A stretch of DNA of 64,000 nt from Candidatus Latescibacterota bacterium (GTDB lineage Bacteria > Latescibacterota > UBA2968 > UBA8231), in NCBI GenBank assembly GCA_964291625.2, contig OZ220089.1:2912001-2976000 (forward strand), read 5' to 3'. Positions 45,869 to 63,603 of the stretch are shown here, one piece after another (within the stretch, counting starts at the first letter, position 1; each line of letters starts with the position of its first letter). Under the pieces are notes generated by a model, which was given only the letters and a program-made list of their open reading frames with translations, was not told the origin of the DNA and made no database searches. The position numbers and the translations under genes were made by a program.

Positions 45869-46793
45869 AGAACTGAGCCTTGATCCTGCCCCAGCTCTTC
45901 GACTCGACAGCCGTCGGGAAATTGATGGAGGGGTTGACGGGCTCCAGGAAGAAGTCGCCCTGGCCCAGCCACGTTCCCTCGCCGCCTGGCCTGGTGGACC
46001 ACGCGGGACCGCCGTGGGCGCCGTCAGGCAGGTTGCCGTCGTCGTCGGTGTTGAAGAAGGTGATGTGGATCGTCTGACCCTCGGTGAGCGAGGCGAGGGT
46101 GATCATGTCCGGAGACTTGTCCTCCGCGTCGAGTCCCCCGACCCAGTGGTCGATGGGCGCCACCCGGTGCTCGTAGTGGTAGGTGCTCTCGCCGAACTCC
46201 TCGCCTTCGAAGGTGTGTTCCAGGGTCCAGAACTCGCTGCCGCTGTCGAGCCAGTCGCACCCGACGCAGATGCCGATGACCATCCAGAATTCGCGGTCGG
46301 GCAGCTTTGGCAGGGCGTAGTTGAAGCCCCAGTAGGCGTTGATGTTCTCGCCGGCCAAGTCTCTCACTTCCTGCTCGGAGAGGTGCCGGATGGTGAAGAA
46401 GTACTCGCTGGCGTCGTCTTGGTACCAGTCCCACCCCGTGGGATCGGGGCGGTCGGTGTTATGGATGTCATCGTAGATGGAGTTGCAATAGTAGAGCTGC
46501 CCCGTGCTGGCGCTCCAGCCGACGCGGATGGTGGCATCGAAGGAGCTGGGGTCGGCGTCGCCCTTCTGGGTCCCTTCGGGCTGCCAGTCGTTGAAGGGAT
46601 AGAGATCGGCGTTGGTGATCCAGTACTGGTCGCCGGGGATGGCGTCCCAGTCGGAACAGTCACCGTCGATGGTGGGCTCGGCCCCGGCCGGGAACTGCAC
46701 CGTGTTCCTGACCTCATCCTCGGGGATGTGGGCGAAGACCGCCGTGGAAACGGCGAGAACGCCGACGACGATCATCTGCGCGCATCTGAACAT
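45867..46793 (-). CDS. Secreted CBM9/DOMON-like sugar-binding protein with C-terminal TAVESKSWGRIK tag
   Basis: Signal peptide (STAVFA); PTIDGDCSDW, RVGWS....LYY, DD, E.RV pattern; RBS AAGGAGAG before ATG 46793. Confidence 0.65.
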   Translation of the reverse strand: MFRCAQMIVVGVLAVSTAVFAHIPEDEVRNTVQFPAGAEPTIDGDCSDWDAIPGDQYWITNADLYPFNDWQPEGTQKGDADPSSFDATIRVGWSASTGQLYYCNSIYDDIHNTDRPDPTGWDWYQDDASEYFFTIRHLSEQEVRDLAGENINAYWGFNYALPKLPDREFWMVIGICVGCDWLDSGSEFWTLEHTFEGEEFGESTYHYEHRVAPIDHWVGGLDAEDKSPDMITLASLTEGQTIHITFFNTDDDGNLPDGAHGGPAWSTRPGGEGTWLGQGDFFLEPVNPSINFPTAVESKSWGRIKAQF

Positions 46794-46946: not shown

Positions 46947-49115
46947 TCAATAGGCCAGAGAGAGGAGGCGGGTGGCCGTCCTGCGCCCCTCGTCACTCAT
47001 CAGCCGGACTTGGGCAAGGTATACCCCCGGCGCCGCCGGGCCGCCGGCATCGTCGCGGCCGTCCCAACGGTGGACGAAGTGGCCGCTGGCCATCGAGGCT
47101 TCCAGCCGCCGCACCAGGCGGCCGTCCAGGGTCAGGATCCGCACCTCCACGGGTCGCGCCTCGGTGAGGTCCCGCAGGTCGAAGGAGAGGATCGCCTCGT
47201 CGTTGATCCCGTCGCCGTTGGGCGTGAAGACGGCGGGCCGGATGTCGAGCCGCTGCAGCAGGCCGCCCCCGGTGGGGGTTCGCACCGAGAGGCCGTCGCC
47301 GACGAAACGGACGGTGGCGTTGCCGGGGGTGACGCTCTGCTTGAGGTCCGGCTCCCGGCTGTCGTAGACCCAGCCGCTGAACTCCGCCCCGAAGCGCAGG
47401 ACGCGGGCGCTGAACTCCACCTCGATCCGCTTCTCGCTGTCGCGCCCCGGATCCTCCAGCCGGTCGAAGGAGAGGAGGATGCGGTCTTCCAGGACCTCGG
47501 GCGGAAACCGCTCCATGACCTCCTCGCCGCCCACGCGCACCGAGGTCACCGCCAAGGCGGGCCCGCCCGTGAGAATCTCCAGGCGGTCGAAGCCGCGGTT
47601 GCCGTCGCGGAGGATCGGCTTGACCACGTAGGTGAAGGTGTGGGGCTCGAAGTCCTCCACCTCGATGGGCCAGATCTCGCCGATGACCTGGGAGGCCGCC
47701 GGCGACTCGGAGAACAGCAGGGACAGGTCGTGGAGTACGGGTGTCCGGTCCCTGGCGGCCGTCAGCACGATCTCGAACTGGAGATAGCGGGTCGGTCCGG
47801 GGGAAATCAGCGGGGTGCCGTGCGACCAAGAAGCGGCGGGGTCCTCACCGCGCTCGCCCGCGGCCAGGTCGTAGGTGGCGGACCAGAAGCTCCAGTTCTC
47901 CAGGTCGATGACGCGCTTGACCTCTCCCGAGGTGATGTCCTGCTGAAAGCTGAGCCAGTCGATGGGCTGGTACCGCCCGCTGACGCCGCGCCGCAGGAAG
48001 ATGTCGGGGCTCGGGGTGTTCCCGGTGCGGGTACGCAATTCGATGGAAGTGCCGGGGGGGCGTTCCGACCTCCAGCGGATCTTGCTCCAAGAGACCGGCT
48101 GGCCGAAGTCCAGGATCTGCGAGCGGTAGACGGAGCGGCGCACGTATCCCTCGCCGTAGATCTCGATCTCCGCCAGCTCCCAGGTCCGTTCCGGGATGTA
48201 GGGGCGCACCGAGACGAAGCGCTCGTGGCGCACGGGGAACCGGAGATCGATCACCGGATCCAGGTTCTCCCGGGTCTGGATCAGGGCGTCGAAGTTGGGG
48301 TCGGTCCCGGCCGAATCGACGTATCCGGTGGTCTCGGAATACCGCTTGAACTGCCCCTGGCCTGGGCGCTGCCCGCCGCCCGTGCTGCCGGGAAACTCCT
48401 TGATCGGAGCGTCGTTGTCGGTCACCGCGATCTCGTACCACTCGAGGTAGTTGTCGGCGAAGCTGGTCTCCCCGAACAGCTCCGGGTCGGGCTTCGGCTC
48501 CGCCATGGCGGCGATGGCCGCGGCGTCGTCGACGCGGCCCAGCCGCGGGTAGACGCGGATCCGGTTGATCGGCGTCTGCTTGCCCAGGTTGATGATCACC
48601 GCCGAGGCCTGGGCCCCCAGGTACACCCCGCCGCGGACCAGGGGCTCCGCCAGGAGGGGGTTGTCCTCGAGCAGCATCAGGCGCGCGGTGGTGGGGTCCT
48701 CGTCGAGGGCCAGCAGCAGATCCCCGGTGGGGTAGCGCTGGGTGTTGTGCCCTTGGTAGATGCTGCCCCCCCGCCCGAAGAGGACGCTGTCCCGGGCGAG
48801 GTTCACCATGGGATCGATCCATTCCGCCCGGAGCATGCCGCCCTCCATGTCGGGCCAGTCGGGCCCCCGGTAGTTGTACTCGAGGAGGAAGGTCCCCCCC
48901 CCCTCTTCCTCGATGGACCTCACCGGGTGCTCCCGGAGCACGTTGCCGGCGGAGTCCACGGCCACGTAGGCTCCTGCGGGGCCATCCTCCTCGGGGACGG
49001 CGAAGAGTTGCCAGTCGTTCGCTCCGGATCCCAGGTGGAATTCGGCACGCGCCCAGAGGGTGCCGGCCAAGGAGAGCAGCAGGGCGGCGGCGGTGAATCC
49101 GATGCGGTTGATCAT
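46947..49115 (-). CDS. Secreted protein, discoidin-like domain plus C-terminal FlgD-Ig-like domain (family B copy 3)
   Basis: Signal peptide; INLG....NRIRVYPR, YGEGY, LRTRTG, ENWSFWS, FTPNGDGIND, WDGRD..G..APGVY, ends LSLAY. Confidence 0.75.
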   Translation of the reverse strand: MINRIGFTAAALLLSLAGTLWARAEFHLGSGANDWQLFAVPEEDGPAGAYVAVDSAGNVLREHPVRSIEEEGGGTFLLEYNYRGPDWPDMEGGMLRAEWIDPMVNLARDSVLFGRGGSIYQGHNTQRYPTGDLLLALDEDPTTARLMLLEDNPLLAEPLVRGGVYLGAQASAVIINLGKQTPINRIRVYPRLGRVDDAAAIAAMAEPKPDPELFGETSFADNYLEWYEIAVTDNDAPIKEFPGSTGGGQRPGQGQFKRYSETTGYVDSAGTDPNFDALIQTRENLDPVIDLRFPVRHERFVSVRPYIPERTWELAEIEIYGEGYVRRSVYRSQILDFGQPVSWSKIRWRSERPPGTSIELRTRTGNTPSPDIFLRRGVSGRYQPIDWLSFQQDITSGEVKRVIDLENWSFWSATYDLAAGERGEDPAASWSHGTPLISPGPTRYLQFEIVLTAARDRTPVLHDLSLLFSESPAASQVIGEIWPIEVEDFEPHTFTYVVKPILRDGNRGFDRLEILTGGPALAVTSVRVGGEEVMERFPPEVLEDRILLSFDRLEDPGRDSEKRIEVEFSARVLRFGAEFSGWVYDSREPDLKQSVTPGNATVRFVGDGLSVRTPTGGGLLQRLDIRPAVFTPNGDGINDEAILSFDLRDLTEARPVEVRILTLDGRLVRRLEASMASGHFVHRWDGRDDAGGPAAPGVYLAQVRLMSDEGRRTATRLLSLAY

Positions 49116-49131: not shown

Positions 49132-52100
49132 TCAATAGGCCAGGGCGATCACCCGGGACCGCTTCCGCCTCCCGGCCTCCGAGTCCGCCAGGGCGCCCAC
49201 CTGGCAGAGATAGAGACCGGGGGGCGCCAGGGCGCCGCCGTCCTCGCGGCCGTCCCAGACGACGGTCTGCGGCCCTCCCAGCAGGTCGAACTCGAGGCCG
49301 CGGACGAGCCGGCCGCCCAAGGAGTAGATGCGCACCTGCACCGGGCGGGCGGCGGCCACCGAAAGCAGGGAGAATCGGATCCGGGCCTCGTCGTTGATGC
49401 CGTCGCCGTTGGGCGTGAATGGGTTGGGCGCGATGGCGAGATCGTCGACGATGCGGCCGATCTCGTCGGCGCGGATGGCCAGGGAGGTGGCCGGCCGCAG
49501 GCCGGTGACGTCCTCCCCGGCGGCCCCCTGCCAGGAGGTGTCCAGGCCGCTGTTGCGGACCGCCAGCTCCAGCAGGGTGCTGGGCAGGTAGACGGCGGAG
49601 GCGAAGCGCACCCGCAACAGCCTCCCGGGACCGATCACCCGTCCGCGCTCGGCGGACCTCAGACGGGCGTACTGGCGGTCGCTCAGCGAGTCTCCGAGCG
49701 CGGAGTACACCGTCTGCTCCCCGAGGGTTGTGACGATCCTGTAAAAGCGTACCGGCCCCTTCTCCTCCTCGGGCAGCTCCTCCCAAGCTGCGGCGTCCAC
49801 CTCTTCCAGCTCCTCGCCATCGAGCCGGAAGTAGCGGATCGCTCCCTGCTCCTCCTCGGGCAGGTCGTTGTAGCCGTTCTGGGTGAGCAGGCGCCCGTCG
49901 AGACCGGCGGGGACCTCGTCGCCGGGCGCGAGGCGGCGGTAGAAGGTCCGGGGAAGCAGCTCCTCGGGGGCGCTCCGGACCGGCTCGGGCAGCCGCAGCC
50001 AGAGGGAGTCCCGGTGGCCGAGGACCCGCATGACCCGGCCCTCGGCGTCCTGGAGCCCGTCGACGTGAGGTTGCTCGAAGAGCATGGCGGGCTCGTCCCG
50101 GGTCAGCTCGTCCTCGGTGCCGGCCGCCAGGTCGATCAGGCGCATGTCGAGGGGCGGGTCGGCCCGCAGCAGAAGCTCGTCGAAGCCGGGGCTCTGGCTG
50201 CCGGACGACCCCTCGAGGAAGCCGGGCTGCAGAAAGACCTCGAAGGTGTCGAGCTGGCCGGCGGCGGACACATCGGGCCAGACCTCGGCTCCCAGTCGCT
50301 GGGCCACGGGCGTCTTCAGATCGACGCTGATGCGCCGTATGGCGGGCACCGACACGCGGTCGTGATTGACCAGGCGCGCCTGGATCCGCATGAACCGGCG
50401 CAGCCCGGGGGAGGTGGCCGGATCGCCCGGGCGTTCGTACTTGCGGCTCCACGGACTCCACCCGGGACCGGCCACGTAGGAGGTGTCGACCGGGCCTTTC
50501 CGGGTGAAGGAGAGGCGCTTGTACTGGGAGGCCGTCTTCTCGTTGCCGTCGGTGTCGAAGTAGCGGATGCGCTCCAGCAGCTGGTCGCCGGTGCGGGTGC
50601 GGATCTGCACCTCGGCCCCGGGGGGTTCGTCGGCCTCCCATCGGACCGCGCCGAGGGTGACCTCTCCCGGCAGCTCGATGAGGTCCGACTCGAGGACCGC
50701 CTCCGCAGCAGGACCTTCGGCGAAGAGCCACATCAGCCGGATTCGGGGCCAGTAGCGGGAGGTCAACTCGCTGGCGTCGTCGGGAAGGGCGAAGGCGATC
50801 ATCTCGAGGAAGCGCACGCGGCGGGAGGGTTCCAGGGGATCCGCCAGGAGGCGGTAGTGGCCGTTGTGCAGGTTGGTCTCCCGCTCGACGGAGGAGAACT
50901 GGTCCCACTGCAGGTTGCCCTGGGCGTCGCGGGCTCCGATGGAGCTGCGCAGGCGGTAGCCCCGGGGCGGGTTGAAGCCGACGGTCCGGACCTCCTTCAG
51001 CCACACCGTGCCGCCCATGTCGACGGTGATCGTGTTCCGGCCCGGCTCGGAAACGATGTAGGTGCTCACCTGGTTGTGGCTTCCGTAGATCCCGTCGAAC
51101 ATGAAACCCGGTTGGCCGGAGGTGGAGGTCTCCTCCACGCTGCCGCCCCCGGAGAGGAACTCGATTCCGAGGTCGTCGCCCCGGCCCCAGGCCTCGACCT
51201 CGGCCAGCCGCGGCAGCTCGCGGCGGTAGTGGACCCGTCCGCCGCGCCGGTCCTCGGGCAGGGAGAGCCAGGTCTCCTCGGAGACCGGCTCCTCGAAGTC
51301 GCCGTCCCTCAGGAAGTGGACGACATCGCCGCGCTCCGCCGCCGGCAGGGCCTGCCAATCCTCCTCCCCGACCTCCTCGGCGCGGCCGCCCCGGGTGTCG
51401 GTGACCACGATGCGGATCAGCTCCACCAGCTTGCCGTCCCATTCCGGGCTGGGCTCGCCGACCCCCAGGTAGGTGCTGGATCCCTTGTAGCTGTCGCTGA
51501 TGGGCAGACGCCGGTCGGGGTCGGTCAAGGCGTCGGCGGGCAGGTACTCGCTGACTCGTTCCGCGTCGAATACGAATGTGCGCCGGTCGGTGTTCACGCC
51601 GTCGAAGGGGATGAAGACATCCGTGTTGCGCGGCACGTCGTCCACGTAGGAGCCCTGCGCCGGACCGACGAGGATGAGGAATCGGTAGAAGGGATCCCCC
51701 CACTCCTCCTCGACGAAGGACAGGCGGAGCCTCTCGAGGGGCACCGGCCGGCCCAGGCCCACTTCGACCCACCAGTCCTCGGGCGGGTCGTCGAGGTCGG
51801 GCTCCCAGAACGTCGTCGGATCGCCGTCGACGAGGTGGTGCATCAGGTGCGGGTTGGACCCGGCGCGGCTCCCCCCGGGGCGGACCACATGGTCGTAGAC
51901 GAGGTTGTCGCCGAGGTCCCTGACCGGATCGCCCCGGAAGTCCCGCCGGACGGTACTGTCCACGTTGGCGATGCGTGGAGCATCGCGGGTGAGGACCACC
52001 GGGCGGCCGAAGGACCGGTCGGACAGCAACTCGTAGACGGTGCGGAACTCCCGGGAGCGCACCGTGCCGTCCCGCTCCAGGCGGACCAGGTGGGTGGGCA

Positions 52101-52242
52101 TGGTCCAGGCCTCCCAGTGCCGCGCACGGTCGACGACGACCTGGCCGCCGCGCACGTCGTAGCCGTTCTGCGCGAGGAGGGGGCCGCCCCACAGCGGCAA
52201 GAGCGCCCACAGGGCCGCCCCGACTCTGCGCCATGTGGTCAT
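49132..52242 (-). CDS. Large secreted protein, discoidin-like domains plus FlgD-Ig-like CTD (family B copy 2)
   Basis: Start at TGATG overlap (52242, or 52248); signal peptide; LVDGDPTTFW, IRTRTG, WSPWS, NPFTPNGDGIND, ends IALAY. Confidence 0.75.
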   Translation of the reverse strand: MTTWRRVGAALWALLPLWGGPLLAQNGYDVRGGQVVVDRARHWEAWTMPTHLVRLERDGTVRSREFRTVYELLSDRSFGRPVVLTRDAPRIANVDSTVRRDFRGDPVRDLGDNLVYDHVVRPGGSRAGSNPHLMHHLVDGDPTTFWEPDLDDPPEDWWVEVGLGRPVPLERLRLSFVEEEWGDPFYRFLILVGPAQGSYVDDVPRNTDVFIPFDGVNTDRRTFVFDAERVSEYLPADALTDPDRRLPISDSYKGSSTYLGVGEPSPEWDGKLVELIRIVVTDTRGGRAEEVGEEDWQALPAAERGDVVHFLRDGDFEEPVSEETWLSLPEDRRGGRVHYRRELPRLAEVEAWGRGDDLGIEFLSGGGSVEETSTSGQPGFMFDGIYGSHNQVSTYIVSEPGRNTITVDMGGTVWLKEVRTVGFNPPRGYRLRSSIGARDAQGNLQWDQFSSVERETNLHNGHYRLLADPLEPSRRVRFLEMIAFALPDDASELTSRYWPRIRLMWLFAEGPAAEAVLESDLIELPGEVTLGAVRWEADEPPGAEVQIRTRTGDQLLERIRYFDTDGNEKTASQYKRLSFTRKGPVDTSYVAGPGWSPWSRKYERPGDPATSPGLRRFMRIQARLVNHDRVSVPAIRRISVDLKTPVAQRLGAEVWPDVSAAGQLDTFEVFLQPGFLEGSSGSQSPGFDELLLRADPPLDMRLIDLAAGTEDELTRDEPAMLFEQPHVDGLQDAEGRVMRVLGHRDSLWLRLPEPVRSAPEELLPRTFYRRLAPGDEVPAGLDGRLLTQNGYNDLPEEEQGAIRYFRLDGEELEEVDAAAWEELPEEEKGPVRFYRIVTTLGEQTVYSALGDSLSDRQYARLRSAERGRVIGPGRLLRVRFASAVYLPSTLLELAVRNSGLDTSWQGAAGEDVTGLRPATSLAIRADEIGRIVDDLAIAPNPFTPNGDGINDEARIRFSLLSVAAARPVQVRIYSLGGRLVRGLEFDLLGGPQTVVWDGREDGGALAPPGLYLCQVGALADSEAGRRKRSRVIALAY

Positions 52243-54986
52243 CACCATCTCCCCAGTCCGGCGTACACGGTGATGAAGGACTGCACCCGGGTGAAGGCTT
52301 TCTCCTCCCGGGGGGTGGTGCGCTCCACCACGAAACCGGTCATGAACCACACCTGGTAGCCCTGGTAGGCCGAGGTGCTGGTCAGCTGCAGCCCCGTGGA
52401 GACGCCGGAGAAGTCGGCGGCCCGGCTGTCCAGATCGCGGGAGAGGAGATACTCGATCCCGCCCTGAAGGGTGGTGGCGCGCAGCAGGGGAACCACCACC
52501 AGTCCGGAGACCAGTTGGGTCAACGTGGTCCGTTGCGCGTCGCTGTAGAGATTGCGGCTCTGGCTGATGTACTCGCTCTTCCAGCGCGGCACGAGCTCCA
52601 GCGTCCCCAGGCGGTAGCTGAAGGCGGCCTTGTTGACGAGGCCGAGGAAGTGGTCGGACTCGTCGAGACCGTGACGCAGCCGTTCCTCCTCCTCGAGCCG
52701 CTGCACGTAGCGCAGGTAGCTGAGCTTGCTCTGCAGGAAGAGGCCGCCCGTCTGGTAGTGGTGGCCGAGGAAGGACCGGTGGATCCACGTGTCCCGGGCC
52801 AGCAGCGGGTCTTCCACCGGCGTCACCCGTCCGCCGTTGAGGGTGTTGTCGGGCGCCCACTGAAGCAGCGGGTCGGGGATGTCGTCGCGGACCGACTCCA
52901 GGGTCTGGAAGATCCGGAGCCGTCCCCACCGCGCCGAGATCCGGTCGTATCCGATGACCGCGTAGTCGCTGTGATTGCGCCGGGCCGACGCGATCGACCC
53001 CTCACGGAGGGTCCCGGCCTTGACCTCCAGGCCCGGGGCCGGGCGGACGCCGCCGAAGAGGTTGAAGCCCCGGCGGTCGCGGCGGTAAGGGTAGTCGGGC
53101 TCGTCGTCGTTCTCGAAGCGGTCGACCCAGAAGTTGTGGTTCATGTCGACGCCGAGGAGGAACTCCGGCCGGTCGGAGCCGAAGCGCAGGAAGGGCTCCT
53201 CGTAGTCGGGGACGGTGTTCGGGCGGATCCGGTTGTCGTTCTGGTTGTAGTCGGGGATGAAATCGTTATTGAGGTCCCAGCCGGGGAAGACGCGGAAGTC
53301 GACGCCGCCTTCACCCCTGGAGTAGGGACCGACCGCGCCCTGGGCGACGGTGTCGAAGCGGAAGAGGTCGGGCAGCCGGTCCTGGTCGTCGTTGTCGTCC
53401 ACCAGCTCCAGCTTCAGGCGGTCGTCATCGTAGGAGACGCTGCCGTCGGCGGAGGTTACGAAGGTCTGGGTGTTGTACAAGGGGTCTATGGAGTAGGCCT
53501 CGCCATGGAAGAAGAAGGGGTCGGCCGTCCGGCCCAGGTTGAGCATCCACGCCGGCCGCGCCGCCTTGCCGGCGATCCCGGAGGAGACCTCGTGTTTCTC
53601 GGCGAGGGGGTTGGGGTACTTGCGGTAGCTCCACCCCAGGTCGTACTCGCCGTAGAGGTCGAGACCCCACACGTCGCTCACCTTCAGGGTGCTGCCCACG
53701 AGGTGGGTGGCGGTGGGCAGCCCGTACTGAAAGCGCACCACGCGCAGGTTGGAGCCGTCGCTGACGTTGCCCTCCGCCCGCTCCACCATGAGCAGCACGG
53801 GCGTGCCCTGGCGGCCGGTCTGCCGGTCGGAGGTCATCCAGATCTGGTAGTCGTTGGCCAGGGTCAGGTGGAACTCGACCTTGGCGATCTCGCTGCGGTC
53901 GGCCCGCGCCCGGCCGGCGAAGGCGGGATCGGTGAAGTCCCAGGTCAGGCGGATCTCGTTGCTGCCGGCGGCGGTGAGGAAGCCCTCGCGGGGGGTCCCT
54001 CCCGAGACGACGGGCTCGAAGCGGATGTCCCTGCCGCTGTCGGTGCTGCCGTCGAGATAGGTGATGAGGATGTCCGAACCGGCCGGGAACCAGGAGGCGC
54101 CGCTGGCGGGATCCTCGGGGGAGTCGTCGCGCAGGACGATCTCGATGGAGGAGACCAGGCCGTTCTTCGATTCCTGCAGCGAGCCGGAGAGCAGGTTGTC
54201 CATGAGCCGGCTGTTGAGGCTGTTGGACTGGTGGGCGTTGGCCATGTGGACCCCCACCTCCACGAAGTCGCCCACCTGGGTCACGAAGCGGCCGCCCATG
54301 ATGGTGGTGACGTCGGTGCGGGGCCGGAGGTCCGACTGGCCGCCGATGCCGCCCTGCGAGTAGAGCAGGGTCGCCATGTACTTGTCGGTGGCGAAGTCGA
54401 GCTGCACGCCGCTGAACCGGGGCTTGGAGAACACCAGCGGCGTCAGGGTCGTGCGCAGGTCGCGGCCCGCGGTGAGGGCGAAGTGGTACTGGCCCTTGCT
54501 CTCGGTGGCGACGGCGACGTTGGAGAACCACTCCGCCATCCTCTGGGCCTCGAAGAAGACGTGCCCGCTCTCGAGCGGGGTCGTCTGGCTGGTGTTGAAG
54601 AGCAGCCATCCCCGGGTGAGCAGGTTGCCGTAGAGATCGTAGAACAAGTCGCCCTCGAGGGCGGTGTCCACGTAGCGCTCGTACGGCTCGCGGGCGTAGG
54701 AGGTGGTCTCCCACTGCCAGAGCCCGGCCTGCGAGTAGAGCTCCTGGGGCACGTACCACTTCCGAACCGTCGGATCGACGGCCTCCATCAGGACCATGGG
54801 GCCCCGAGGCTCGAAGCCGCGCACCCCCGCCTGGGCCACGCCGAGGCGTCCCCCGTAGTCGACCTGTGCCGGCGCCGCTTGCGGACCCAGGACCGCCGCG
54901 GCGAGGAGAACACGGACCACCCGACAAAGCCCCCTCCGGCTCTCCCGCGCGGCCCGGCCGCCTCTCTGGTTCACGGAATCCCTCAT
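52242..54986 (-). CDS. Asp-rich putative outer-membrane protein (family C copy 2)
   Basis: Signal peptide then QVDYGGRLG, DPTVRKWYVPQELY, Ca-loop-like repeats, amphipathic C-terminal strands ending FITVYAGLGRW; start approximate. Confidence 0.7.
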   Translation of the reverse strand: MRDSVNQRGGRAARESRRGLCRVVRVLLAAAVLGPQAAPAQVDYGGRLGVAQAGVRGFEPRGPMVLMEAVDPTVRKWYVPQELYSQAGLWQWETTSYAREPYERYVDTALEGDLFYDLYGNLLTRGWLLFNTSQTTPLESGHVFFEAQRMAEWFSNVAVATESKGQYHFALTAGRDLRTTLTPLVFSKPRFSGVQLDFATDKYMATLLYSQGGIGGQSDLRPRTDVTTIMGGRFVTQVGDFVEVGVHMANAHQSNSLNSRLMDNLLSGSLQESKNGLVSSIEIVLRDDSPEDPASGASWFPAGSDILITYLDGSTDSGRDIRFEPVVSGGTPREGFLTAAGSNEIRLTWDFTDPAFAGRARADRSEIAKVEFHLTLANDYQIWMTSDRQTGRQGTPVLLMVERAEGNVSDGSNLRVVRFQYGLPTATHLVGSTLKVSDVWGLDLYGEYDLGWSYRKYPNPLAEKHEVSSGIAGKAARPAWMLNLGRTADPFFFHGEAYSIDPLYNTQTFVTSADGSVSYDDDRLKLELVDDNDDQDRLPDLFRFDTVAQGAVGPYSRGEGGVDFRVFPGWDLNNDFIPDYNQNDNRIRPNTVPDYEEPFLRFGSDRPEFLLGVDMNHNFWVDRFENDDEPDYPYRRDRRGFNLFGGVRPAPGLEVKAGTLREGSIASARRNHSDYAVIGYDRISARWGRLRIFQTLESVRDDIPDPLLQWAPDNTLNGGRVTPVEDPLLARDTWIHRSFLGHHYQTGGLFLQSKLSYLRYVQRLEEEERLRHGLDESDHFLGLVNKAAFSYRLGTLELVPRWKSEYISQSRNLYSDAQRTTLTQLVSGLVVVPLLRATTLQGGIEYLLSRDLDSRAADFSGVSTGLQLTSTSAYQGYQVWFMTGFVVERTTPREEKAFTRVQSFITVYAGLGRW

Positions 54987-54997
54987 GGCCGGCCCGT

Positions 54998-57079
54998 TCA
55001 GTAGGCGATCCCCACGGCGCGTGCCGCCGCGGTGGAGCGGGCGTCGCCGTCCACCGTCAGCTGCACCAGATAGAGCCCGGGAGGCAGCGGGTTCCCCCGG
55101 TCGTCGCGGCCCCCCCAGTCGAGGCCGGCGAAGCCGGCGCTGGTGTAGGTGCCGTTGCCGCCCTGATGCTCGAAGATCGTGGCCCGGCGCCGGCCGCTGA
55201 CGTCGAAGAGGGCCACCTCGATGTCGGCCTCGCCCACCACCGTGAGCACCTCGAAGCTCAGCCGCAGGCGGTCGTTCACCCCGTCGCCGTTGGGGGTGAG
55301 GACGGGCGCCTCCAGGGAGAAGCCGCCGATGAGCCCGCCGCGGGTCACCCCCGGACTGAGGACGGTGATGCCGGATTCGAAAGCCGCGTCGTCCTCGTCC
55401 AGAAGGCCGGCGTCGCCGCCCTCCACCCACTGGAAGGCGTCCGTCCCCTCCACCAGGGCCCGCCCCGCGAAGTCGCTGCTGTAGGCCAGGACCTGGTTGA
55501 CGAAGCGGATCTTGAGCACCGTGCCGTCCTCGGTGATCCGCGGGAAGCGGACGGTGAAGGCCTCGTCGGTGAAGGAGGTGATGGCCGCCTCGCCCTCGTC
55601 GGTCACCGCGTCCTGCGTCTCGAAGTCGTGAGCGAGGATCGTCGTCCCGTCGGCGGCGACCATCTCCAGGCCCTCGATCCGTTCGGCCCGGCCCTGGGTG
55701 GACAGCTCGAAGGCGTTGAACCCCTGCACCTCGGCGCGCCTCATGTCCGCCCGCACGGCGTACACGAACCGGGTGGGAAGAGCGGCCTCCACGTCGCGGG
55801 GGAAGATCTCGGCCACGAGGGCGTCGGCCAGGGCCGGCCGGGTGAACTCGAAGGAGATGCCCTCGAGGACCTGGCTCGAGTGCAGCCCCCGGCTGAGGAA
55901 CTCGACCTGGAACTGGAAATAAGTCCGCGGCGCCGGGGAGACGTTGCGGGTGCCCGCGGCGCTCAGGCCCTCCGTGGCCGGGTAGGGCGGCGACCAGGGG
56001 CTCCAGTTCTCCACGTCGTCCCCTATGGACCCGCGCTCCCAGAGATCGCTAGCCGCGCCGTCGGCGGGCAGGGCGAGGAACTCCTTGCGCGAGAGGGGTT
56101 CGCCCGGATTGTCGACGGACCGGGGGATGTCCTCGGCGTTGGGGTTCCCCACCTCGCGGCGGTTGTAGACGAAGGGAGTATCGTCGCTCCCGGTGCGGGT
56201 GCGGATGACGAGGCCGGTGAGGGCCTCCTCTCCGGTCACGCTTCTCTGCCAGCGGACCTGTCCCCAATTGCTGGGGGTGCCCAGGTCGACCACGGGGGAC
56301 AGGTAGCGGGCGAAGGGGTAGAACCCCTCGCCGAAGATCTGGAACTTCTCGATCTCGTAGGGTATGGCCGAGGTGGCCCGCAGGCGCACGAAGCGCACGT
56401 ACCGGGGCGGGTCGATCTCCACCACCGTCACCGGCTCGGAGTTGTCGTCCACGGTGAGGAAGGACTCCCAGGTGCCCAGGGCGGGAAGTCCGGCCTCGTT
56501 GAGGAGCAGGCCGTCGTGGATCCGCACCTCGAAGTTGCGCAGGAAGTCGTCCTCGAAGGGGGTGGTCGGCGAGGGCAGAAGGGTGTTGCGCGGGAAGAAG
56601 CGGAGGCGGTTGACGCCGACGATCGCCCCCAGGTCCACGGTCAGCAGGGTGCCCTGGATCTTGTCGCCCTTGCGCTCGAAGGCGGTGCCCGTCGACTCGG
56701 GGGTGAGCAGACCCTGCAGGATCTCGGCCAGCAGCCTCCTGTCGAGCTCCAGGGATGTCTCGGAGACGATACTGCCGCCGTTGGCCACGAGGCTGGCGGA
56801 CAGGTTCTCGCCCTCGTCCAACTGGACGGGCAGGAGGGCCTGCGGATGGTCGCCATGGTCCAGCTCGACGCGGCCGTCCGGGGCGACGCCGATGGCGGTG
56901 ACCCCCGGCGTGAGGGAGGGGCGGAACTCGGGCTGGATGGTGGCCACGCCCTCCAACCCGGAGACCTCCCCCTCCCAGGTGATGTTCCCGTCCCGGCCGA
57001 AGCGCACCTCCTGGGCGCCGGTGGGGGACAGCCCCGTGAGCACCGCCAGGGCCAGGCGGACCAGGACCCCGGCCCTCAC
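54998..57079 (-). CDS. Secreted discoidin-like plus FlgD-Ig-like CTD protein (family B copy 1)
   Basis: Signal peptide; VDLG....NRLRFFPR, FGEGF, IRTRTG, ENWSPWS, LTPNGDGVND, WGGRDDRG..LPPGLY, ends VGIAY. Confidence 0.75.
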   Translation of the reverse strand: MRAGVLVRLALAVLTGLSPTGAQEVRFGRDGNITWEGEVSGLEGVATIQPEFRPSLTPGVTAIGVAPDGRVELDHGDHPQALLPVQLDEGENLSASLVANGGSIVSETSLELDRRLLAEILQGLLTPESTGTAFERKGDKIQGTLLTVDLGAIVGVNRLRFFPRNTLLPSPTTPFEDDFLRNFEVRIHDGLLLNEAGLPALGTWESFLTVDDNSEPVTVVEIDPPRYVRFVRLRATSAIPYEIEKFQIFGEGFYPFARYLSPVVDLGTPSNWGQVRWQRSVTGEEALTGLVIRTRTGSDDTPFVYNRREVGNPNAEDIPRSVDNPGEPLSRKEFLALPADGAASDLWERGSIGDDVENWSPWSPPYPATEGLSAAGTRNVSPAPRTYFQFQVEFLSRGLHSSQVLEGISFEFTRPALADALVAEIFPRDVEAALPTRFVYAVRADMRRAEVQGFNAFELSTQGRAERIEGLEMVAADGTTILAHDFETQDAVTDEGEAAITSFTDEAFTVRFPRITEDGTVLKIRFVNQVLAYSSDFAGRALVEGTDAFQWVEGGDAGLLDEDDAAFESGITVLSPGVTRGGLIGGFSLEAPVLTPNGDGVNDRLRLSFEVLTVVGEADIEVALFDVSGRRRATIFEHQGGNGTYTSAGFAGLDWGGRDDRGNPLPPGLYLVQLTVDGDARSTAAARAVGIAY

Positions 57080-59064
57080 GGCCCCACCCCCATGCGGGAC
57101 TGCAGTTGGTCGGTCATCATGCTCGTCACCAGCGTCAGGTGCCCCTGCAGGTCCTCGCGCTCGCGGTTCCGCTGATAGCGGACGTAGGCGAGGCGGGACT
57201 CCTCGGCGCGGGCTTCGTCCCCGAGGCGCTCGTAGGTCAGGGCGAGGTAGTAGTGGACCCGGTGGTCTTCGGGCCAGACCTGGCGCAGGCGTTCGAAGAG
57301 GGCGGCGGCCTCCCGGTGGCGGCCCTGCTCGTGGAGCTGGCGGCCCCTCAGCCCCAGGGCCGCTCCCGAGTCCGGCGCCGTCTCCAGGACCTGCTCCAGC
57401 ACCTCCGCCGCTTCCTGGCCGCGGCCTCGGCGGATCAGCACCTCGGCCAGGACGGGACCGTACTCGGCCACCTGTCCCCCCTCGTAGAGGGCGCGGCAGG
57501 CCTCCTCGGCCTCGGGCAGCCGGCCGGCGGCCGAGTAGAGCAGGGCCAGCATGCCGCGGGCCCGGACGTTGCCCGGCTCCGCCTCCAGCGCCCGTTCATA
57601 GGCGCCCAGGCCCCCCTCCACGTCGCCGCTGCGGAACAGGGCGTCGCCCAGAAGGGTGAGCAGCGAATCCGCGGGGGCGGCCTGCGCCCTGATCAGCTCC
57701 CGGTAGCATCTGGCCGCCTCGGCCGCCCGCCCCGAGGTCAGGTAGACCTTGGCGAGGGCCATGCGGGACTCGTGCATCTCCGGCCAGCGCTCGAGCAGGC
57801 TCTCGTAGAGGCCGGCGGCGCGGATGTCGTCCTTCTGGGCCCGGTAGTGCCCGGCCAGGGCCTGGTAGGTCTCCAGCCTGGCGGGGTCGAGGGAGAGGGC
57901 CGTCTCGTACTCGCGGACGGCGTTGGCGCGCAGTCCGAGCTGCCCGAAGCCATGGCCGAGCCAGTAGTGCTGCCCGGCCCGGCCTTCGGCGCCCGCATCG
58001 CCGGCGTTGAGGCCGATGGCCAGCAGGAGGCAGGCGGCCGCCGCCGCCAGCGCCGGCAGCCTCGGAAGGGTGGCCATCGCCGTCACCCCGGCCGCGGCGA
58101 AGATCAGCAGGACCGGCACCGCCGGGGCGCGCACCGCCGAGTCCGCGGCCGGCAGGAGCAGGGCCTGCACGGTGAAGCAGCCGGCGAAGAGGAGGAGGGC
58201 GATCTCCAGCGGCCCTCGCCCGCCGCGCAGGCGCGCGAAGATGCCCGCCAGCGCCAGGGGCGCCGCCACGCCGAAGGGGAAGGCCAGCCCCTCGTCCCAC
58301 AGCAACACCGACAGCAGGCTGGAGCTGCGGCTCCCGAAGTAGGGATCGACCTCCCCCAGGAACTCGCCTCCCTGCCACAGGGCGTGGACCCGGCGGAGGC
58401 CCTCCCCCAGCCCCGGAGCCGCCTCCGGCGCCCAGGCCGACAGCAGCCAGGCGGGCAGCAGGACGGCGGCCGTCCCCAGTGCCAGGCGCAGGGCCGCACC
58501 CCGGCGGCTCCGCAGCAGCCAGAGGGCCAGGGCGAGGGCGAAGAGGCAGATCCACCACTCGGCGAGGGCGGCGAGCCCCAGGAGCAGCCCCGGCAGCCAG
58601 AACGGCCGCTCCCCGGAAGAGGTGAGGGCCCGCGACAGGGCGATCAGGGCGAGCAGCACCAGGCACGTGGCCAGCACCGGAGGCAGGATCTCGCCGGAGA
58701 AGTAGATGGCAGGTCCGTAGAGGGCGAGGGCCAGGCCGGCCCCGAGAGCCGCTTTCGGCGGGAGGGCGGACGACCTGGCCAGCCACCAGAGCAGGACGCA
58801 GTTGACGGCTCCGAGGACCACCTGGACTCCGCGAACCAGATCGAAGTCCCCGGGGACGACGGCGAGAAAGGCGTCGTAGAGGGAGACGAAACCGGCCGCC
58901 TCGCCAGAGCTGCGCTCCAGGTGGGCGATGGCGGACCCCAGCGGGACCTCGCGCACAGGGTGGCTGCCGGACTGGTGGACGTAGATCCACCGGGCCGCCA
59001 GGGCGGCGGCGAAGATGGCGGCCCCCTCGCCGGCGGCGCTGCGGCTCATCTCCCGGAGGCTCAT
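57076..59064 (-). CDS. GT-C-like membrane protein with C-terminal TPRs, divergent paralog of 43858-45783
   Basis: ATG 59064; shares YGP..YF.GE.LP, LWQG.E...EVDPYF, LLW..GLAFPFG..APLAL.G, then TPRs. Confidence 0.72.
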   Translation of the reverse strand: MSLREMSRSAAGEGAAIFAAALAARWIYVHQSGSHPVREVPLGSAIAHLERSSGEAAGFVSLYDAFLAVVPGDFDLVRGVQVVLGAVNCVLLWWLARSSALPPKAALGAGLALALYGPAIYFSGEILPPVLATCLVLLALIALSRALTSSGERPFWLPGLLLGLAALAEWWICLFALALALWLLRSRRGAALRLALGTAAVLLPAWLLSAWAPEAAPGLGEGLRRVHALWQGGEFLGEVDPYFGSRSSSLLSVLLWDEGLAFPFGVAAPLALAGIFARLRGGRGPLEIALLLFAGCFTVQALLLPAADSAVRAPAVPVLLIFAAAGVTAMATLPRLPALAAAAACLLLAIGLNAGDAGAEGRAGQHYWLGHGFGQLGLRANAVREYETALSLDPARLETYQALAGHYRAQKDDIRAAGLYESLLERWPEMHESRMALAKVYLTSGRAAEAARCYRELIRAQAAPADSLLTLLGDALFRSGDVEGGLGAYERALEAEPGNVRARGMLALLYSAAGRLPEAEEACRALYEGGQVAEYGPVLAEVLIRRGRGQEAAEVLEQVLETAPDSGAALGLRGRQLHEQGRHREAAALFERLRQVWPEDHRVHYYLALTYERLGDEARAEESRLAYVRYQRNREREDLQGHLTLVTSMMTDQLQSRMGVGP

Positions 59065-59066
59065 CC

Positions 59067-61739
59067 CTACTCCAGACCGGCGTAGATGGTGACGAAGAAC
59101 TGGTTGGTGGTCCGGGACTCGCGCTCCTCGAAGGCGCGGTGCTCGACCGAGACGCCCAACAGCGAGCGCAGGCGGTAGCCCAGGTAGGTGGAGTCGGTGG
59201 TGAACTGCACGGCCACCGTGAGGGAGTCGAAGTCCTGCTCGTCGTCGTCGAGATCGTTGAGGTACAGGTACTCGACACCTGTCTGGACCTTGGAGGAGCT
59301 CAGGACCCGGGTCTGGGCGATGATCCCCGCCATCTCGGTGAGGCGCGACCGCCGTCCGGCGCCGAAGAGGCCGCGGCTCTGGCGGGTGTACTCGCTCTTC
59401 CACCGCGGCTCCAGGAGGAAGGGTCCGATCCGGTGCCGGTAGCTGACCTTGTCGATGAGGCCGAAGAAGTAGTCCTCGCGGGCGAGGCCGAGCTCCCGGC
59501 GGCGCTCGCCGGACATGCGCTGGTCGTAGAGGAGGTGGTTCACCTTGTTGACCACCAGCCACGGCCCCGACTCCAGGGAGTGGCCGAGGAAGAGCTGGTT
59601 GATCCAGGTGTCCTGCCCGAGCAGGGGGTCCTCGATCAGGACGAGCTCGCCGCCGCGCAGGGAGTTGTCCGGGGCCCACTGCAACAGGGGATCGGGGATG
59701 TCGTCCTGGACCCACTGGGTCATGAGGAAGAGGCGCAGGCGGCCGAAGCGGGGCGAGTCCGAATCGATGGTCGCCAGGGCGTAGTTGCTGTGATTCCTGC
59801 GGTCGCTGGAGATCAGCTCCTCCCGCAGCACGCCCGCCATCAACTTCATCCCCGGGGCGACCTCGGCGCCGCCGTAGATGTTGAACCCCTCGTGGTCCTT
59901 GCGGTACGGGAAGTCGGGAGCCTCGTCGTTCTCGTACTGGTCGACCCAGAAGTTGTGGTTCATGTCGACGCCGAAGAGGAACTCCGGCGGGTCGACGCCG
60001 AAGCGCAGGAAGGCCTCCTCGTAGTCCGGGACGGCATTGGTCCGGACCCTGTTGTCGTTCTGGTTGAAGTCGGGCACGAAGTCGTTGTTCTGGTCCCAGC
60101 CGGGATAGACCTCCGTGTCGCCCCTCAACCAGTCCGAGCGCACCGTGTCGGGGATGCGGTCGTGGTCGTCGTTGTCCTCCACCAGCTCGTACCCGCTCCG
60201 GCGGGTGTCGCCGTAGTAGATCTCTCCGACCCGGGTGCACAGGAGGGAGCGCGTGTTGTAGAACGGGTCCATGCTGTAGGCCTCGCCGAAGAGGAACCAG
60301 GGGGCCTTCCTCCGGGAGACGTTCAGCATCCACGCCGGGGCGCTCTCGGCGCCCTCGATTCCCGAGCTGGAGTGGTGGATCTCCTCGGCCGCGTTGGGGT
60401 ACTTGCGGTAGCTCCAGCTGCGGTCGTACTCGCCGTACACGTCCAGGCCGAAGGGGGCGCGGATCTCCAGGCTGCCGCCGGCCACGTGGGTCGCCGTGGG
60501 CAGGCCGTAGTGGAAGCGCAGGGTGCGCAGGTTGGTGATGTCGCGGACGTTGCCCTCGGCCTGGGCCACCAGGAGCAGCACCGGCTGCCCGTGGAAATCG
60601 GTCTGGCTGTCGGAGGTCATCCAGACCTGGTAGTCGTTGCCCATCTGCAGCCGGAACTCGACCTCGACGATCTCGGCCTTGGTGTGCTTCGCGCGGTCGA
60701 GGAATCCGGGGCTGTCGAAGTTGTAGATCAGCCGGATCTCCTCGGTGCCGTCGGCGGCGATGAAGCCCTGGCGGACGATGCCGCCCTCCACCACCGGCGT
60801 GAAGCCGATCTCCCGGCCGCGCTCCTGCGTGCCGTCCTGGTAGGTGATGAAGATGTCGGACCCGGCGGGGAACCAGGCGGCGCCGCCCTCCCCGTCCGCG
60901 GGGGAGTCGTCGCGCAGGACGATCTCGATGGAGGAGATGGCCTCGTTCTGGGCTACCGTCAGCTCGCCGGCGAAGGGGTTCCAGCTGGTCTTGTCCCGCA
61001 GCGTGTTGGACTGGTGGGCGTTGACGCCGTGGACCCCGAGCTTGAGGTAGTCGCCGACCTGGGCGGCCAGCCGCCCGCCGACGAGGCTGGTGTTGTTGGT
61101 GCTCAGGAACTCCCGGTCGAGGGTGCTGCTGCCGCCGGGGCTGCTGATGCGCGAATAGAGCAGGGTGGCCTCGGCGCGGTCGGTGGCCAGGTCGAACTGC
61201 AGCCCGTCGAAACGGGGCTTGGAGAACACCATGGGCGTCAGCACCGTGCGCAGCTGATTGCTCACGGTGAGGGAGAAGTGGTACTGGCCCTTCTGGTCGT
61301 GGGTGACGACGACGCCCGAGAACCAGTCCCGGAAGCGGTTGGACTTGAGCAGCGAGTTCCCGAACTGTTCCGGCGTGGTCTGCGAGTTGTTGTAGATCAG
61401 CCAGCCCCGGGTGAGGAAGTTGCCGTAGATGTCGTAGAAGTGCTCGCCCTCGAGGGTGGTGTCGATGTAGCGCTGGTAGTGGTCGCGGGCGTAGTTGGTG
61501 TAGTCCCACTGGCGCCAGCGGTAGTCCAGGTAGAGCTCCTGGGGCACGTACCACTTGCGCATGGCCGGGTCGACGGCGTTGAGCATGACCCCCGGCCCCT
61601 GGGGGGCGAGGCTGTACTCCTCCCCCTGGCGCAGGCCCAGCCGCGCGCCGTAGTCCTGCTGCGCCGCGGCGGGCAGCAGGCCCAGGGCGAGCAGCCCCAG
61701 GAGACCGAGAGCAGCTGCCGGATTGCCGTGCAGGTTCAT
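59067..61739 (-). CDS. Asp-rich putative outer-membrane protein (family C copy 1)
   Basis: RBS AAGGAG, ATG 61739; signal peptide, QQDYGARLG, DPAMRKWYVPQELY, ends FFVTIYAGLE. Confidence 0.72.
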   Translation of the reverse strand: MNLHGNPAAALGLLGLLALGLLPAAAQQDYGARLGLRQGEEYSLAPQGPGVMLNAVDPAMRKWYVPQELYLDYRWRQWDYTNYARDHYQRYIDTTLEGEHFYDIYGNFLTRGWLIYNNSQTTPEQFGNSLLKSNRFRDWFSGVVVTHDQKGQYHFSLTVSNQLRTVLTPMVFSKPRFDGLQFDLATDRAEATLLYSRISSPGGSSTLDREFLSTNNTSLVGGRLAAQVGDYLKLGVHGVNAHQSNTLRDKTSWNPFAGELTVAQNEAISSIEIVLRDDSPADGEGGAAWFPAGSDIFITYQDGTQERGREIGFTPVVEGGIVRQGFIAADGTEEIRLIYNFDSPGFLDRAKHTKAEIVEVEFRLQMGNDYQVWMTSDSQTDFHGQPVLLLVAQAEGNVRDITNLRTLRFHYGLPTATHVAGGSLEIRAPFGLDVYGEYDRSWSYRKYPNAAEEIHHSSSGIEGAESAPAWMLNVSRRKAPWFLFGEAYSMDPFYNTRSLLCTRVGEIYYGDTRRSGYELVEDNDDHDRIPDTVRSDWLRGDTEVYPGWDQNNDFVPDFNQNDNRVRTNAVPDYEEAFLRFGVDPPEFLFGVDMNHNFWVDQYENDEAPDFPYRKDHEGFNIYGGAEVAPGMKLMAGVLREELISSDRRNHSNYALATIDSDSPRFGRLRLFLMTQWVQDDIPDPLLQWAPDNSLRGGELVLIEDPLLGQDTWINQLFLGHSLESGPWLVVNKVNHLLYDQRMSGERRRELGLAREDYFFGLIDKVSYRHRIGPFLLEPRWKSEYTRQSRGLFGAGRRSRLTEMAGIIAQTRVLSSSKVQTGVEYLYLNDLDDDEQDFDSLTVAVQFTTDSTYLGYRLRSLLGVSVEHRAFEERESRTTNQFFVTIYAGLE

Positions 61740-61750
61740 CGACTGGCTCC

Positions 61751-63442
61751 TTACCCCTTCGCGTGCCGTTGTTCCAGGCGGTCCTCGAAGACCTGTATGC
61801 GGTCCCCGTATCTCTCTCGCAGGGACTTGAAGAGGGCGGAGACCCGGGTGTCCCGCCCCTTGGCGCGGAGGTGCTGCACCACGGCCGCGCGCGCCTGCTC
61901 GAAGGTCAGGAGGCGGCTGCCCTCCCGCTCCAGGACCCGCAGGATCGCATGGCTGTCGACTTTTTTCAGGTACAGGGGGCCCAGCACCTCGCCCACGGGC
62001 GCCGAGAAGGCAGCTTCCACCAGCTCCGGAAAGCCCTCGGCGAGATGGCGTTGCAGGACCATCTCGCCGCCCTTCCTGTGGATGCCGTGGGAGGCCGCGC
62101 CCGGACGCCGGAGGATCTCGGCGAAGGCAGTTCCCCCCTCGATCTCGCCGCGCCACCGCAGGGCCTCGTCCTCGTCCTCCGTGTGCACTTCCTCGATGCG
62201 GGCCCTGTCGCCGGCGCGGAACAACTCGCGGTTCTCGTCGTAGTAGCCCCGAACCTCCTCCTCCGAGAACACCAGGTGGTCCTCCACGTCGATCTGCATG
62301 AGGTGGTCCACCAGAAGCCCGTCGCGGGTGTGGGCCCGCCATTCCTCGAAGGCCTCGTCCTGGTGCCATCCCCGTTGCCGCGCGGCGAAGGCGAAGAGAC
62401 GGGGGTAGAGGAGCTCCCGCTCGGCGATGGAGAGGATGAGGGCGCTGTCCGACAGGGCCGAGCTCTTGGCCATCTTGCGGACCCGGTCCACGAAGTCGGC
62501 GGCGGTGATGGGGGCCCCGCCGGCCCAGGTGAACAGCGGCTGGCGGGCCTGCTCCGGGGTCAGCTCCGGCTGGCGCGCCCGGGTGCGCTCGATGAGGGCG
62601 CGCACCCCCTCCGGGCGGGGGCTTACGTCCTGGTCCCGCCGGAGCAGCTCGACCTCCTCCTCGGTGCGGCGCCACCACTGCTCCATGAAGAGGAGCTTGC
62701 GGACGTCGTCGGCGTAGAGCTGGATCGGCGCCTCGCGGTCTTCGGCGAAGCGGATGATCTGCCACCCCAGCTGTGAGAGGGGGAGCAGGGCGGGGGTTCG
62801 CACCGGCAGGGAGAGGAACTCGCCCTGCGGCACCCGGAGGCGCTTGAGTCCGGGCACGCCGACCCAGCCGATGGTTCCGGTCGAGTCGGTGCTGGGGTCG
62901 TTGGGGGCGTACTCCCTGGCCAGCTCGTCGTAGCCGGTTCCCGACTCGAGCTGCTCGAAGACGGCGCGGGCCTCGGCCTCGCTCCCCTTGAGGACGATGC
63001 GCTGCAGCAGCCGCTCGCGGTCGAAGCCCATGTCGTGGAAGGCGCGCTCCACCTCCTTGGGGCCGATCTCGACCTTGGGGGCGATCACCTGGCGCTGGTA
63101 GCGCATGGAGAGCCAGGCCCGCTCCGCGTCCTCCATCTGCCGGGCCAGGGCCGAGGTGGTGTCGAGCCCCCGGCCGTGGGCCTCAAGCAGCAGCAGCTCC
63201 TGGTCGATCACGGACTGCAGGTGGTCCCGGTCGGCCTGGACCCCCTCCTGGTCGCTGACCAGGTGGTCCGGCAGCCGGTCGACGAATCTCTCGAGTCCGG
63301 CCTCGGTGATCTCGGCATCGCCGACCCGGGCCAGGACCACCTCGTCGGGACCGCAGCCGGCGAGGACGGCGGCCAGGAAGGATGGCACGATGGTTCGGAG
63401 GGGGATGGGGAAACGGCCGGCGGGGGCCCTGGCAATCGGCAT
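61751..63442 (-). CDS. PpiC/SurA/PrsA-like peptidyl-prolyl isomerase lipoprotein
   Basis: Lipobox VLAG-C; VLARVGDAEIT, LIDQELLL-like motif (VIDQELLL), two rotamase-like domains, TFEQAR..V; start uncertain (63442-63454). Confidence 0.75.
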   Translation of the reverse strand: MPIARAPAGRFPIPLRTIVPSFLAAVLAGCGPDEVVLARVGDAEITEAGLERFVDRLPDHLVSDQEGVQADRDHLQSVIDQELLLLEAHGRGLDTTSALARQMEDAERAWLSMRYQRQVIAPKVEIGPKEVERAFHDMGFDRERLLQRIVLKGSEAEARAVFEQLESGTGYDELAREYAPNDPSTDSTGTIGWVGVPGLKRLRVPQGEFLSLPVRTPALLPLSQLGWQIIRFAEDREAPIQLYADDVRKLLFMEQWWRRTEEEVELLRRDQDVSPRPEGVRALIERTRARQPELTPEQARQPLFTWAGGAPITAADFVDRVRKMAKSSALSDSALILSIAERELLYPRLFAFAARQRGWHQDEAFEEWRAHTRDGLLVDHLMQIDVEDHLVFSEEEVRGYYDENRELFRAGDRARIEEVHTEDEDEALRWRGEIEGGTAFAEILRRPGAASHGIHRKGGEMVLQRHLAEGFPELVEAAFSAPVGEVLGPLYLKKVDSHAILRVLEREGSRLLTFEQARAAVVQHLRAKGRDTRVSALFKSLRERYGDRIQVFEDRLEQRHAKG

Positions 63443-63603
63443 GGCCATCTGCATCGGGAGCACGTTCGGCCCGGTCGCCGCGGGTCGGGGGAGTGTGCGG
63501 CGGCAGGGTCTCTCCGTCTCGGCGGGCGAGGTCTGCGCCGCCGGCCGGGTCAGCCGGGGGACGAGGGCTCCGGGGCCCCAATATATATGGAGACGGCGGC
63601 TGT

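Follow-up and report, generated by a model that had tools for sequence, protein, structure and literature searches.

The stretch analysed here (the window) comprises 64,000 nucleotides of a Candidatus Latescibacterota bacterium (assembly GCA_964291625.2, contig OZ220089.1, positions 2,912,001 to 2,976,000 of the forward strand) and carries genes for two proteins of about 900 residues, P0001 and P0002. The question that it raises is what these proteins are and what they do. The original prediction, made from the letters of the window, took them for a novel outer-membrane barrel with a plug-like N-terminus and a calcium-stabilised extracellular domain. [quoted passage not shown] The two proteins and the parts of P0002 are as follows.

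59067..61739, minus strand: barrel paralog 1, P0002, 890 aa; signal peptide, N-terminal domain and a predicted outer-membrane barrel of about 24 strands with two inserts
61662..61739, minus strand: P0002 signal peptide, residues 1-26; Ala-x-Ala site, mature start Gln, by eye from the sequence
61314..61661, minus strand: P0002 N-terminal domain, residues 27-142; aromatic-rich, conserved in the near clade (defined below), low model confidence to about residue 100
59076..61313, minus strand: P0002 barrel region, residues 143-888; 23 long strands in the prediction, to which parity would add a short one on the N-terminal side
60507..61004, minus strand: P0002 insert 1, residues 246-411; beta-sandwich with a conserved DDSPxDG loop, probably extracellular
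59895..60269, minus strand: P0002 insert 2, residues 491-615; Asp/Asn-rich, nearly without regular secondary structure
52242..54986, minus strand: barrel paralog 2, P0001, 914 aa; start codon uncertain, mature start likely Gln41

Both are intact minus-strand open reading frames, 52% identical over 876 columns, and all twelve of the conserved motifs originally quoted for them occur once in each and in identical order, an agreement that reflects true paralogy and not chance. The two are not adjacent, since a glycosyltransferase gene and the gene of a tailed protein lie between them, and they belong to a family of 25 copies. Shadow reading frames on the plus strand were discarded on their codon-position GC. 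Neither protein matched Pfam or NCBIfam at E ≤ 0.1, and PDB sequence searches with a single sequence and three profiles returned chance-level matches only, in keeping with the first impression that no named family could be recognised. The barrel family is unnamed, and none of the sequence profiles of PorP/SprF, the TonB Plug, ushers, SlpA and SprA is matched over its cut-off.

The AlphaFold2 model of P0002, built from 124 sequences (mean pLDDT 85.6, pTM 0.84), is a beta-barrel. DSSP assigns to it 23 long strands from residue 143 to residue 888, the last of them (876-888) at the very end of the protein, with short turns alternating with long loops. The short turns of outer-membrane barrels usually face the periplasm, and if this is so here, residue 143 must be preceded by one more short strand, the 24th, and the two inserts point outward. 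As such, we infer about 24 strands (range 22-26) and take inserts 1 and 2 to be probably extracellular. A barrel had thus been foreseen correctly in kind, but it is not confined to the C-terminus, and beside the single Asp-rich insert described at first there is a second one, a beta-sandwich. The hydrophobic alternation that had been noted shows plainly in many of the predicted strands but faintly in the rest (alternating positions differ by 0.0-0.74 over the 25 segments tested). Last, every listed match of the fold searches is a membrane barrel, none of them close, which together with the model and the missing family match upholds the proposal of a novel outer-membrane barrel. A soluble fold is rejected in view of the barrel model and of fold matches that are all membrane barrels.

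Folded alone, insert 1 is again a beta-sandwich (pLDDT 85.6), for which fold searches gave generic beta-sandwich matches only (best Z 5.8). Insert 2 is the most conserved part of the protein: 88 positions are shared by at least 90% of the family, and 32 of them fall within it, 23 being Asp, Asn or Glu; in each window protein the insert contains two Dx[DN]x[DN] loops with near-invariant Asp/Asn. Conserved residues of this kind suggest that insert 2 likely binds a metal, probably calcium. At the other end of the protein, residues 27-100 are conserved in the near clade and modelled at pLDDT 33-58; the N-terminal domain has no similarity to the plug of TonB-dependent transporters in a profile comparison (E 0.63), and the plug-like role first proposed for it is unproven. 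An aromatic residue closes the chain in no more than 18 of the 117 full-length members, a conserved Phe standing mostly 6-11 residues before the end.

The genome holds 25 copies of the family, 24 intact and one frameshifted. The near clade comprises 12 copies at 8 loci, 35-55% identical and including the frameshifted one, and the far clade 13 copies, about 25% identical, arranged as four trios and one single. Among 50%-identity representatives the family has 690 matches, and its profile matched in 72 of 121 genomes of the phylum Latescibacterota, with up to 84 candidates in one genome. Two families of the same class (f2 and f3) lack it in 29 of 29 and 13 of 13 genomes and are also without a strong match to the tail described below, whereas both occur in families farther off. 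The homologues that carry a name are hypothetical proteins, most of them from Candidatus Latescibacterota or labelled Gemmatimonadota, two carrying other labels. All 30 Atlas neighbours of one homologue shared no common Pfam family; longer fused forms (1807-5000 aa) numbered 0 among 7515 candidates, which is weak evidence; and a profile-profile test for an internal repeat was not significant. The frameshifted copy (G000:C1:4212381-4216405, locus L009) has profile positions 17-704 and 707-855 in different frames, and a gene for one of the tailed proteins, of subtype X, is likewise split near C1:302499; each may be an assembly error or a pseudogene.

What ties these barrels to secretion is their neighbours, on which the original prediction is silent. 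A profile of the C-terminal domain (CTD), made from 23 motif-picked C-termini taken genome-wide, gave 150 matches, namely 29 strong ones (PFTPNGDG...VAY, above 100 bits; CTD-B below) and 121 weak ones (at most 67 bits, mostly with type-A-like LLLR/K ends). All 29 CTD-B proteins are encoded within 15 kb of a family gene, as against 4 of the 121 other matches; 7.3% of the genome lies that close. Twelve of the 25 family genes stand directly downstream of a CTD-B gene, among them P0001, which starts 11 bp after one, and not P0002. In the phylum sample, 70 of the 72 genomes that have the barrel also give a strong CTD-B match (E ≤ 1e-20, the threshold having been placed in a gap once the data had been seen), as do 0 of the 49 that lack it; the 121 genomes are kin, and the counts represent few independent events.

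In the window, barrel and tailed genes belong to one tight minus-strand run with gaps of at most 16 bp, in the order peptidyl-prolyl isomerase (PPIase), P0002, a glycosyltransferase with tetratricopeptide repeats (PMT-TPR), cargo Y, P0001, cargo X and cargo Z, followed by a protein with a WGxIK tail, a second PMT-TPR and a DUF6785 protein. We refer to such a gene set as a kit; its members beside the barrels are listed here.

61751..63454, minus strand: SurA/PrsA-like PPIase; lipobox-like LAGC motif, start codon uncertain
57076..59064, minus strand: PMT_2-like (GT-C) membrane glycosyltransferase with TPR repeats, between both barrel genes
54998..57079, minus strand: tailed surface protein, subtype Y, 693 aa; CHU_C/FlgD_ig-like CTD, end GIAY
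49132..52245, minus strand: tailed surface protein of 1037 aa, subtype X; F5/8 (discoidin) match weak, CTD end ALAY
46947..49115, minus strand: tailed surface protein, subtype Z, 722 aa; FlgD_ig above cut-off, weak CHU_C, CTD end SLAY
45867..46793, minus strand: secreted protein with C-terminal WGxIK motif; one paralog matches CBM9_1
43858..45783, minus strand: second PMT_2-TPR glycosyltransferase, downstream on the same strand
41954..43861, minus strand: DUF6785/DUF6784 membrane protein; 27 paralogs in the genome, 10 of them no farther than 15 kb from a family gene

The tailed proteins are paralogous beyond the tail, and a quick tree of 28 of the 29 CTD-B proteins divides them into subtypes X, Y and Z and a subtype W linked to the far-clade trios, the Z clade having a support of 88 only. 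At all eight near-clade loci X, Y and Z occur together (six by the tree, two by best BLAST hit), with one X split and one locus carrying two Z. Among 68 loci of other genomes, largely orthologous to one another, all 46 with at least two tailed genes had differing subtypes, and all 38 with three had X, Y and Z. A mirror-tree test on directly adjacent barrel/CTD pairs found no co-divergence (12 pairs, rho -0.19), whereas an exploratory test by subtype, designed after that negative result and covering 7 of the 8 near-clade loci (the split-X locus excluded, one barrel per locus), gave rho 0.45 with X (p 0.023), 0.55 with Z (p 0.005) and 0.29 with Y (p 0.14).

Paralogs of other kit members keep the same company: at family loci stand 7 of 7 close paralogs of the PPIase and 9 of 10 of the WGxIK protein, as well as 6 of 6 for one PMT query and 6 of 9 for the other. 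Genome-wide, 34 called genes end in [ST]WGx[IVL]K, one of them that at 45867-46793 of the window, and such a gene is present no more than 15 kb from every one of the 8 near-clade loci; it is possible that this motif is a third sorting tail. The mature proteins of P0001, P0002, cargo X and cargo Y apparently start with Gln after the signal peptide, and a Gln at this place is the pyroglutamate 'Q-rule' of Bacteroidota.

As to export, the genome encodes SprA, PorV and two PorU, each over its cut-off. SprA lies at G000:C1:98138-104335, PorV next to a PorU at 1099932-1104267 and the second PorU at 4476981-4480085, and there are 14 PorV-like matches and more than 100 type-A-like CTD matches besides. 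Scans of the genome found no PorP/SprF, GldM or GldN, in runs in which no positive control rang, and by these profiles the genome appears to possess a T9SS translocon without a detected canonical motor. SprA is matched in 120 of the 121 genomes of the phylum and in 71 of the 72 with the barrel, some of the matches being weak. The partners in the window reach 20.5-21.8 bits against the CHU_C cut-off of 27 and, for two of the three, 14-16 bits against the TIGR04131 cut-off of 35; two of their paralogs stand slightly above the CHU_C cut-off (27.3 and 27.6 bits).

The system would in this way work like a known kind. According to PMC12618676, cargo with a type-B CTD in Bacteroidota needs a cognate PorP/SprF barrel that is often encoded directly downstream, and PMC9143113 describes PorP-like barrels of 14 strands that anchor type-B CTD proteins at the surface, with the cargo staying bound. 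The likeness to PorP/SprF (PF11751, TIGR03519; as in SprB-SprF and PG1035-PorP) lies in the gene order, a gene for an outer-membrane barrel often coming directly after one whose product has a CHU_C-like tail, in many paralogous sets per genome and in the presence of SprA in the same genome, and the linkage to genes with type-B-like tails given above is shared as well. The differences lie in the barrel and in its cargo: the PorP models span 273-292 positions, whereas the Latescibacterota barrel has about 890 residues, about 24 predicted strands (23 long ones over 890 aa, instead of a 14-strand FadL-type barrel) and two inserts, and its partners, all paralogs of a single family, make up a fixed X/Y/Z trio. 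Neither P0001 nor P0002 matched PF11751 or TIGR03519 at E ≤ 0.1, none was found at family loci in the genome scans, and a comparison of the barrel profile with 11 PorV-like proteins of the genome was not significant (E 0.26). Given that the genetics copy the type-B pattern of Bacteroidota with an unrelated, larger barrel and a fixed trio, a role as anchor or scaffold is favoured.

It is reasonable to postulate the following course. The barrel and X, Y and Z, whose signal peptides are visible in sequence, would cross the inner membrane by Sec, and the co-encoded SurA-like lipoprotein may aid the folding of the barrel or of its partners. X, Y and Z, bearing the PFTPNGDG...VAY variant of the type-B CTD, would leave through SprA, which the genome does encode, and the barrel would collect or hold them by means of its two inserts, of which the acidic one probably gains rigidity from calcium. 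The barrel would then do the PorP/SprF job of Bacteroidota with a chain of roughly threefold length, and it would serve a fixed trio instead of one cargo per shuttle. The weak F5/8 and CBM9 matches suggest that the product may be a glycan-binding surface platform.

Several points weigh against an anchor or scaffold. Every functional step draws on gene context, and no CTD gene directly precedes P0002 or, in all, 13 of the 25 family genes. The adjacent pairs (rho -0.19) and subtype Y (p 0.14) leave a strict one-to-one pairing unsupported, and since the tails in the window fall short of the cut-offs of both CHU_C and TIGR04131, their export through SprA is extrapolated. With about 24 strands the barrel is far bigger than an anchor requires, PorP having 14 (PMC9143113), and far-clade barrel trios with one tailed protein near ExbB genes are unexplained by such a role. 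The genomes and loci counted are related and not independent, and the scan by which PorP appeared absent had no positive control.

The far-clade trios lie at G000:C1:13857-22151, 360363-368739 and 4444740-4453414 and at C2:46358-55059 (loci L001, L004, L011 and L012). Each follows one gene with a type-A-like tail and one of subtype W; three of the four directly precede a TPR protein of about 1080 aa, and DUF4159 and ExbB genes are nearby.

The fold searches bring in two other possibilities. Best matches by Foldseek were MtrB, SlpA, FimD and LptD, at TM scores of 0.24 or less; the wide VIA search gave Z values up to 14.0, and the top VIA row, the usher FimD (Z 14.8, rmsd 4.0, 265 aligned), lies within 1 Z of the next rows, which are unrelated barrels. 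Among the families listed, no single barrel family was singled out. If the likeness to FimD is taken at face value, each barrel could be an usher-like pore that exports and assembles its own X, Y and Z, delivered by the lipoprotein chaperone, without SprA; we regard this as unlikely. FimD and PapC do align over the whole barrel (model 153-886), with the lowest rmsd among the top VIA rows, and they resemble it in the beta-sandwich set into the barrel, in a chaperone gene close by, in a fixed set of subunits and, if the predicted count holds, in having about 24 strands; a fixed set of paralogous subunits with a dedicated chaperone gene is indeed the layout of a chaperone-usher operon. Yet no usher match was seen by sequence in Pfam, NCBIfam or PDB, the chaperone is SurA-like and not PapD-like, the model ends in a barrel strand and has no C-terminal periplasmic domains, and the partners are proteins of 700-1040 aa with T9SS-like tails. 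Insert 1 follows a strand that probably runs outward and is itself probably extracellular, unlike the usher plug, which sits between strands 6 and 7 and blocks the lumen (PMC4356140). The near-constant company of SprA in barrel genomes (71 of 72, some matches weak) also speaks against export without it. The broader form of this idea, in which the kit is a secretion-and-assembly system of its own, independent of SprA, with an usher-like barrel of a new family, three Ig-tailed lectin subunits that a dedicated lipoprotein chaperone hands over for assembly into a surface complex, and an energised form where trios and ExbB meet, is unlikely to the same degree.

SlpA of Deinococcus, which ranks 2-4 in Foldseek (TM 0.19-0.24), suggests instead a structural part of the envelope, an abundant, metal-stiffened barrel giving order to the outer membrane and carrying an X/Y/Z surface layer without any transport, and this we consider very unlikely. 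The Deinococcus-Thermus protein (PF21620) is likewise a giant barrel with acidic, putatively metal-bound insertions, and of the features of the family the acidic inserts, and only they, fit it; PMC9388160 describes metal-stabilised insertions and a suggestion that SlpA anchors the HPI layer. Of 44 members scanned, 11 match one four-strand stretch of SlpA_C (best E 7.9e-7), a region that corresponds to roughly 394-503 in P0002; the 11 all belong to the 24 far-clade proteins scanned, two of which were picked for that label. These matches fall below the cut-off (at most 28.3 of 35 bits) and cover under a fifth of the profile, and neither the window proteins nor any of the 20 near-clade members scanned has one. 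SlpA also has more strands (28-30); Pfam found no SLH domain or coiled coil in P0001 and P0002, and the model has no long helix to serve as a stalk. Moreover, 25 divergent copies in multi-copy kits fit one structural role poorly.

Other resemblances are fainter still. With the SprA/Sov and DUF6029 barrels the family shares a faint GxR...lG motif in early strands, and DUF6029 is the nearest named Atlas cluster (0.89); profile-profile comparisons were not significant with either SprA (E 0.018, probability 2.6%) or DUF6029 (E 0.02, probability 2.4%), and the SprA of the genome (SprA/Sov, about 2000 aa, TIGR04189) is a different gene. The weak links to SlpA, SprA, DUF6029 and the PorV-like proteins may reflect remote shared hairpins, and they do not place the family.

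The wider neighbourhood and the size of the barrel raise the further question of uptake. A SusC/SusD-like machine would have the barrel as a gated import channel with its N-terminal domain as a non-canonical luminal plug, an arrangement that we hold to be unlikely; in it, X, Y, Z and the CBM9-like protein would capture surface glycans, DUF6785 would carry the product over the inner membrane and ExbBD encoded elsewhere would supply the energy. Like TonB-dependent transporters, the family has a large barrel of their size class after an N-terminal domain of about 115 aa, and some VIA alignments pair the model from residues 41-56 onward with the N-terminal part of such chains. Of the 8 ExbB genes, 5 are no more than about 13 kb away from a family locus, though none is near the locus in the window, and for DUF6785 genes 10 of 27 are similarly close to a family gene (15 kb or less). 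The copy number is high, as substrate-specific uptake kits would have it, and the F5/8 and CBM9 matches, weak as they are, would suit carbohydrate-binding neighbours. Against this stand the absence of a Plug domain (24 PF07715 matches in the genome, 0 at family loci), a C-terminal residue that is rarely aromatic, the two large inserts, and the lack of any glycoside hydrolase adjoining the kit genes scanned. The barrel of such transporters has 22 strands; here DSSP points to about 24, with an N-terminus of low confidence. DUF6785 is a putative transporter; it had no PDB match, and no paper on it was found in the literature.

The window holds two DUF6785/DUF6784 proteins, at 38990-40981 (plus strand) and 41954-43861 (minus strand). 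Recurrent beside near-clade kits (L002, L003, L006, L008 and L010) are FG-GAP/ASPIC-UnbV proteins and GDSL-TPR proteins, some of them recognised by eye, as well as a lipoprotein-like protein of about 250 aa without a Pfam match. Elsewhere in the window a small two-gene pair at 36075-36568, whose second gene matches the PemK/MazF toxin, is likely a toxin-antitoxin module, and at 2412-5929, adjoining MetK, a 711-aa protein without a Pfam match is followed by a DUF5723 protein.

The T9SS literature consulted (PMC12618676, PMC4793230) treats the system as exclusive to Bacteroidota, and our search, outside which lay most subscription papers and all supplements, found no paper joining Latescibacter with type IX secretion or T9SS, or with outer membrane and FlgD. 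A whole uncultured phylum nonetheless carries SprA, and its majority (72 of 121 genomes) adds a much-amplified giant-barrel family tied to a secretion-tail class of its own. Were the barrel itself to export its partners, it would constitute a new secretion route. If, as we favour, it anchors or scaffolds the trio, then type-B-like cargo would be anchored by two unrelated barrel families, one of them serving a fixed three-subunit complex, and the kits would provide a testable model of how these bacteria build their surface, together with a large-barrel architecture that would be new for structural work.

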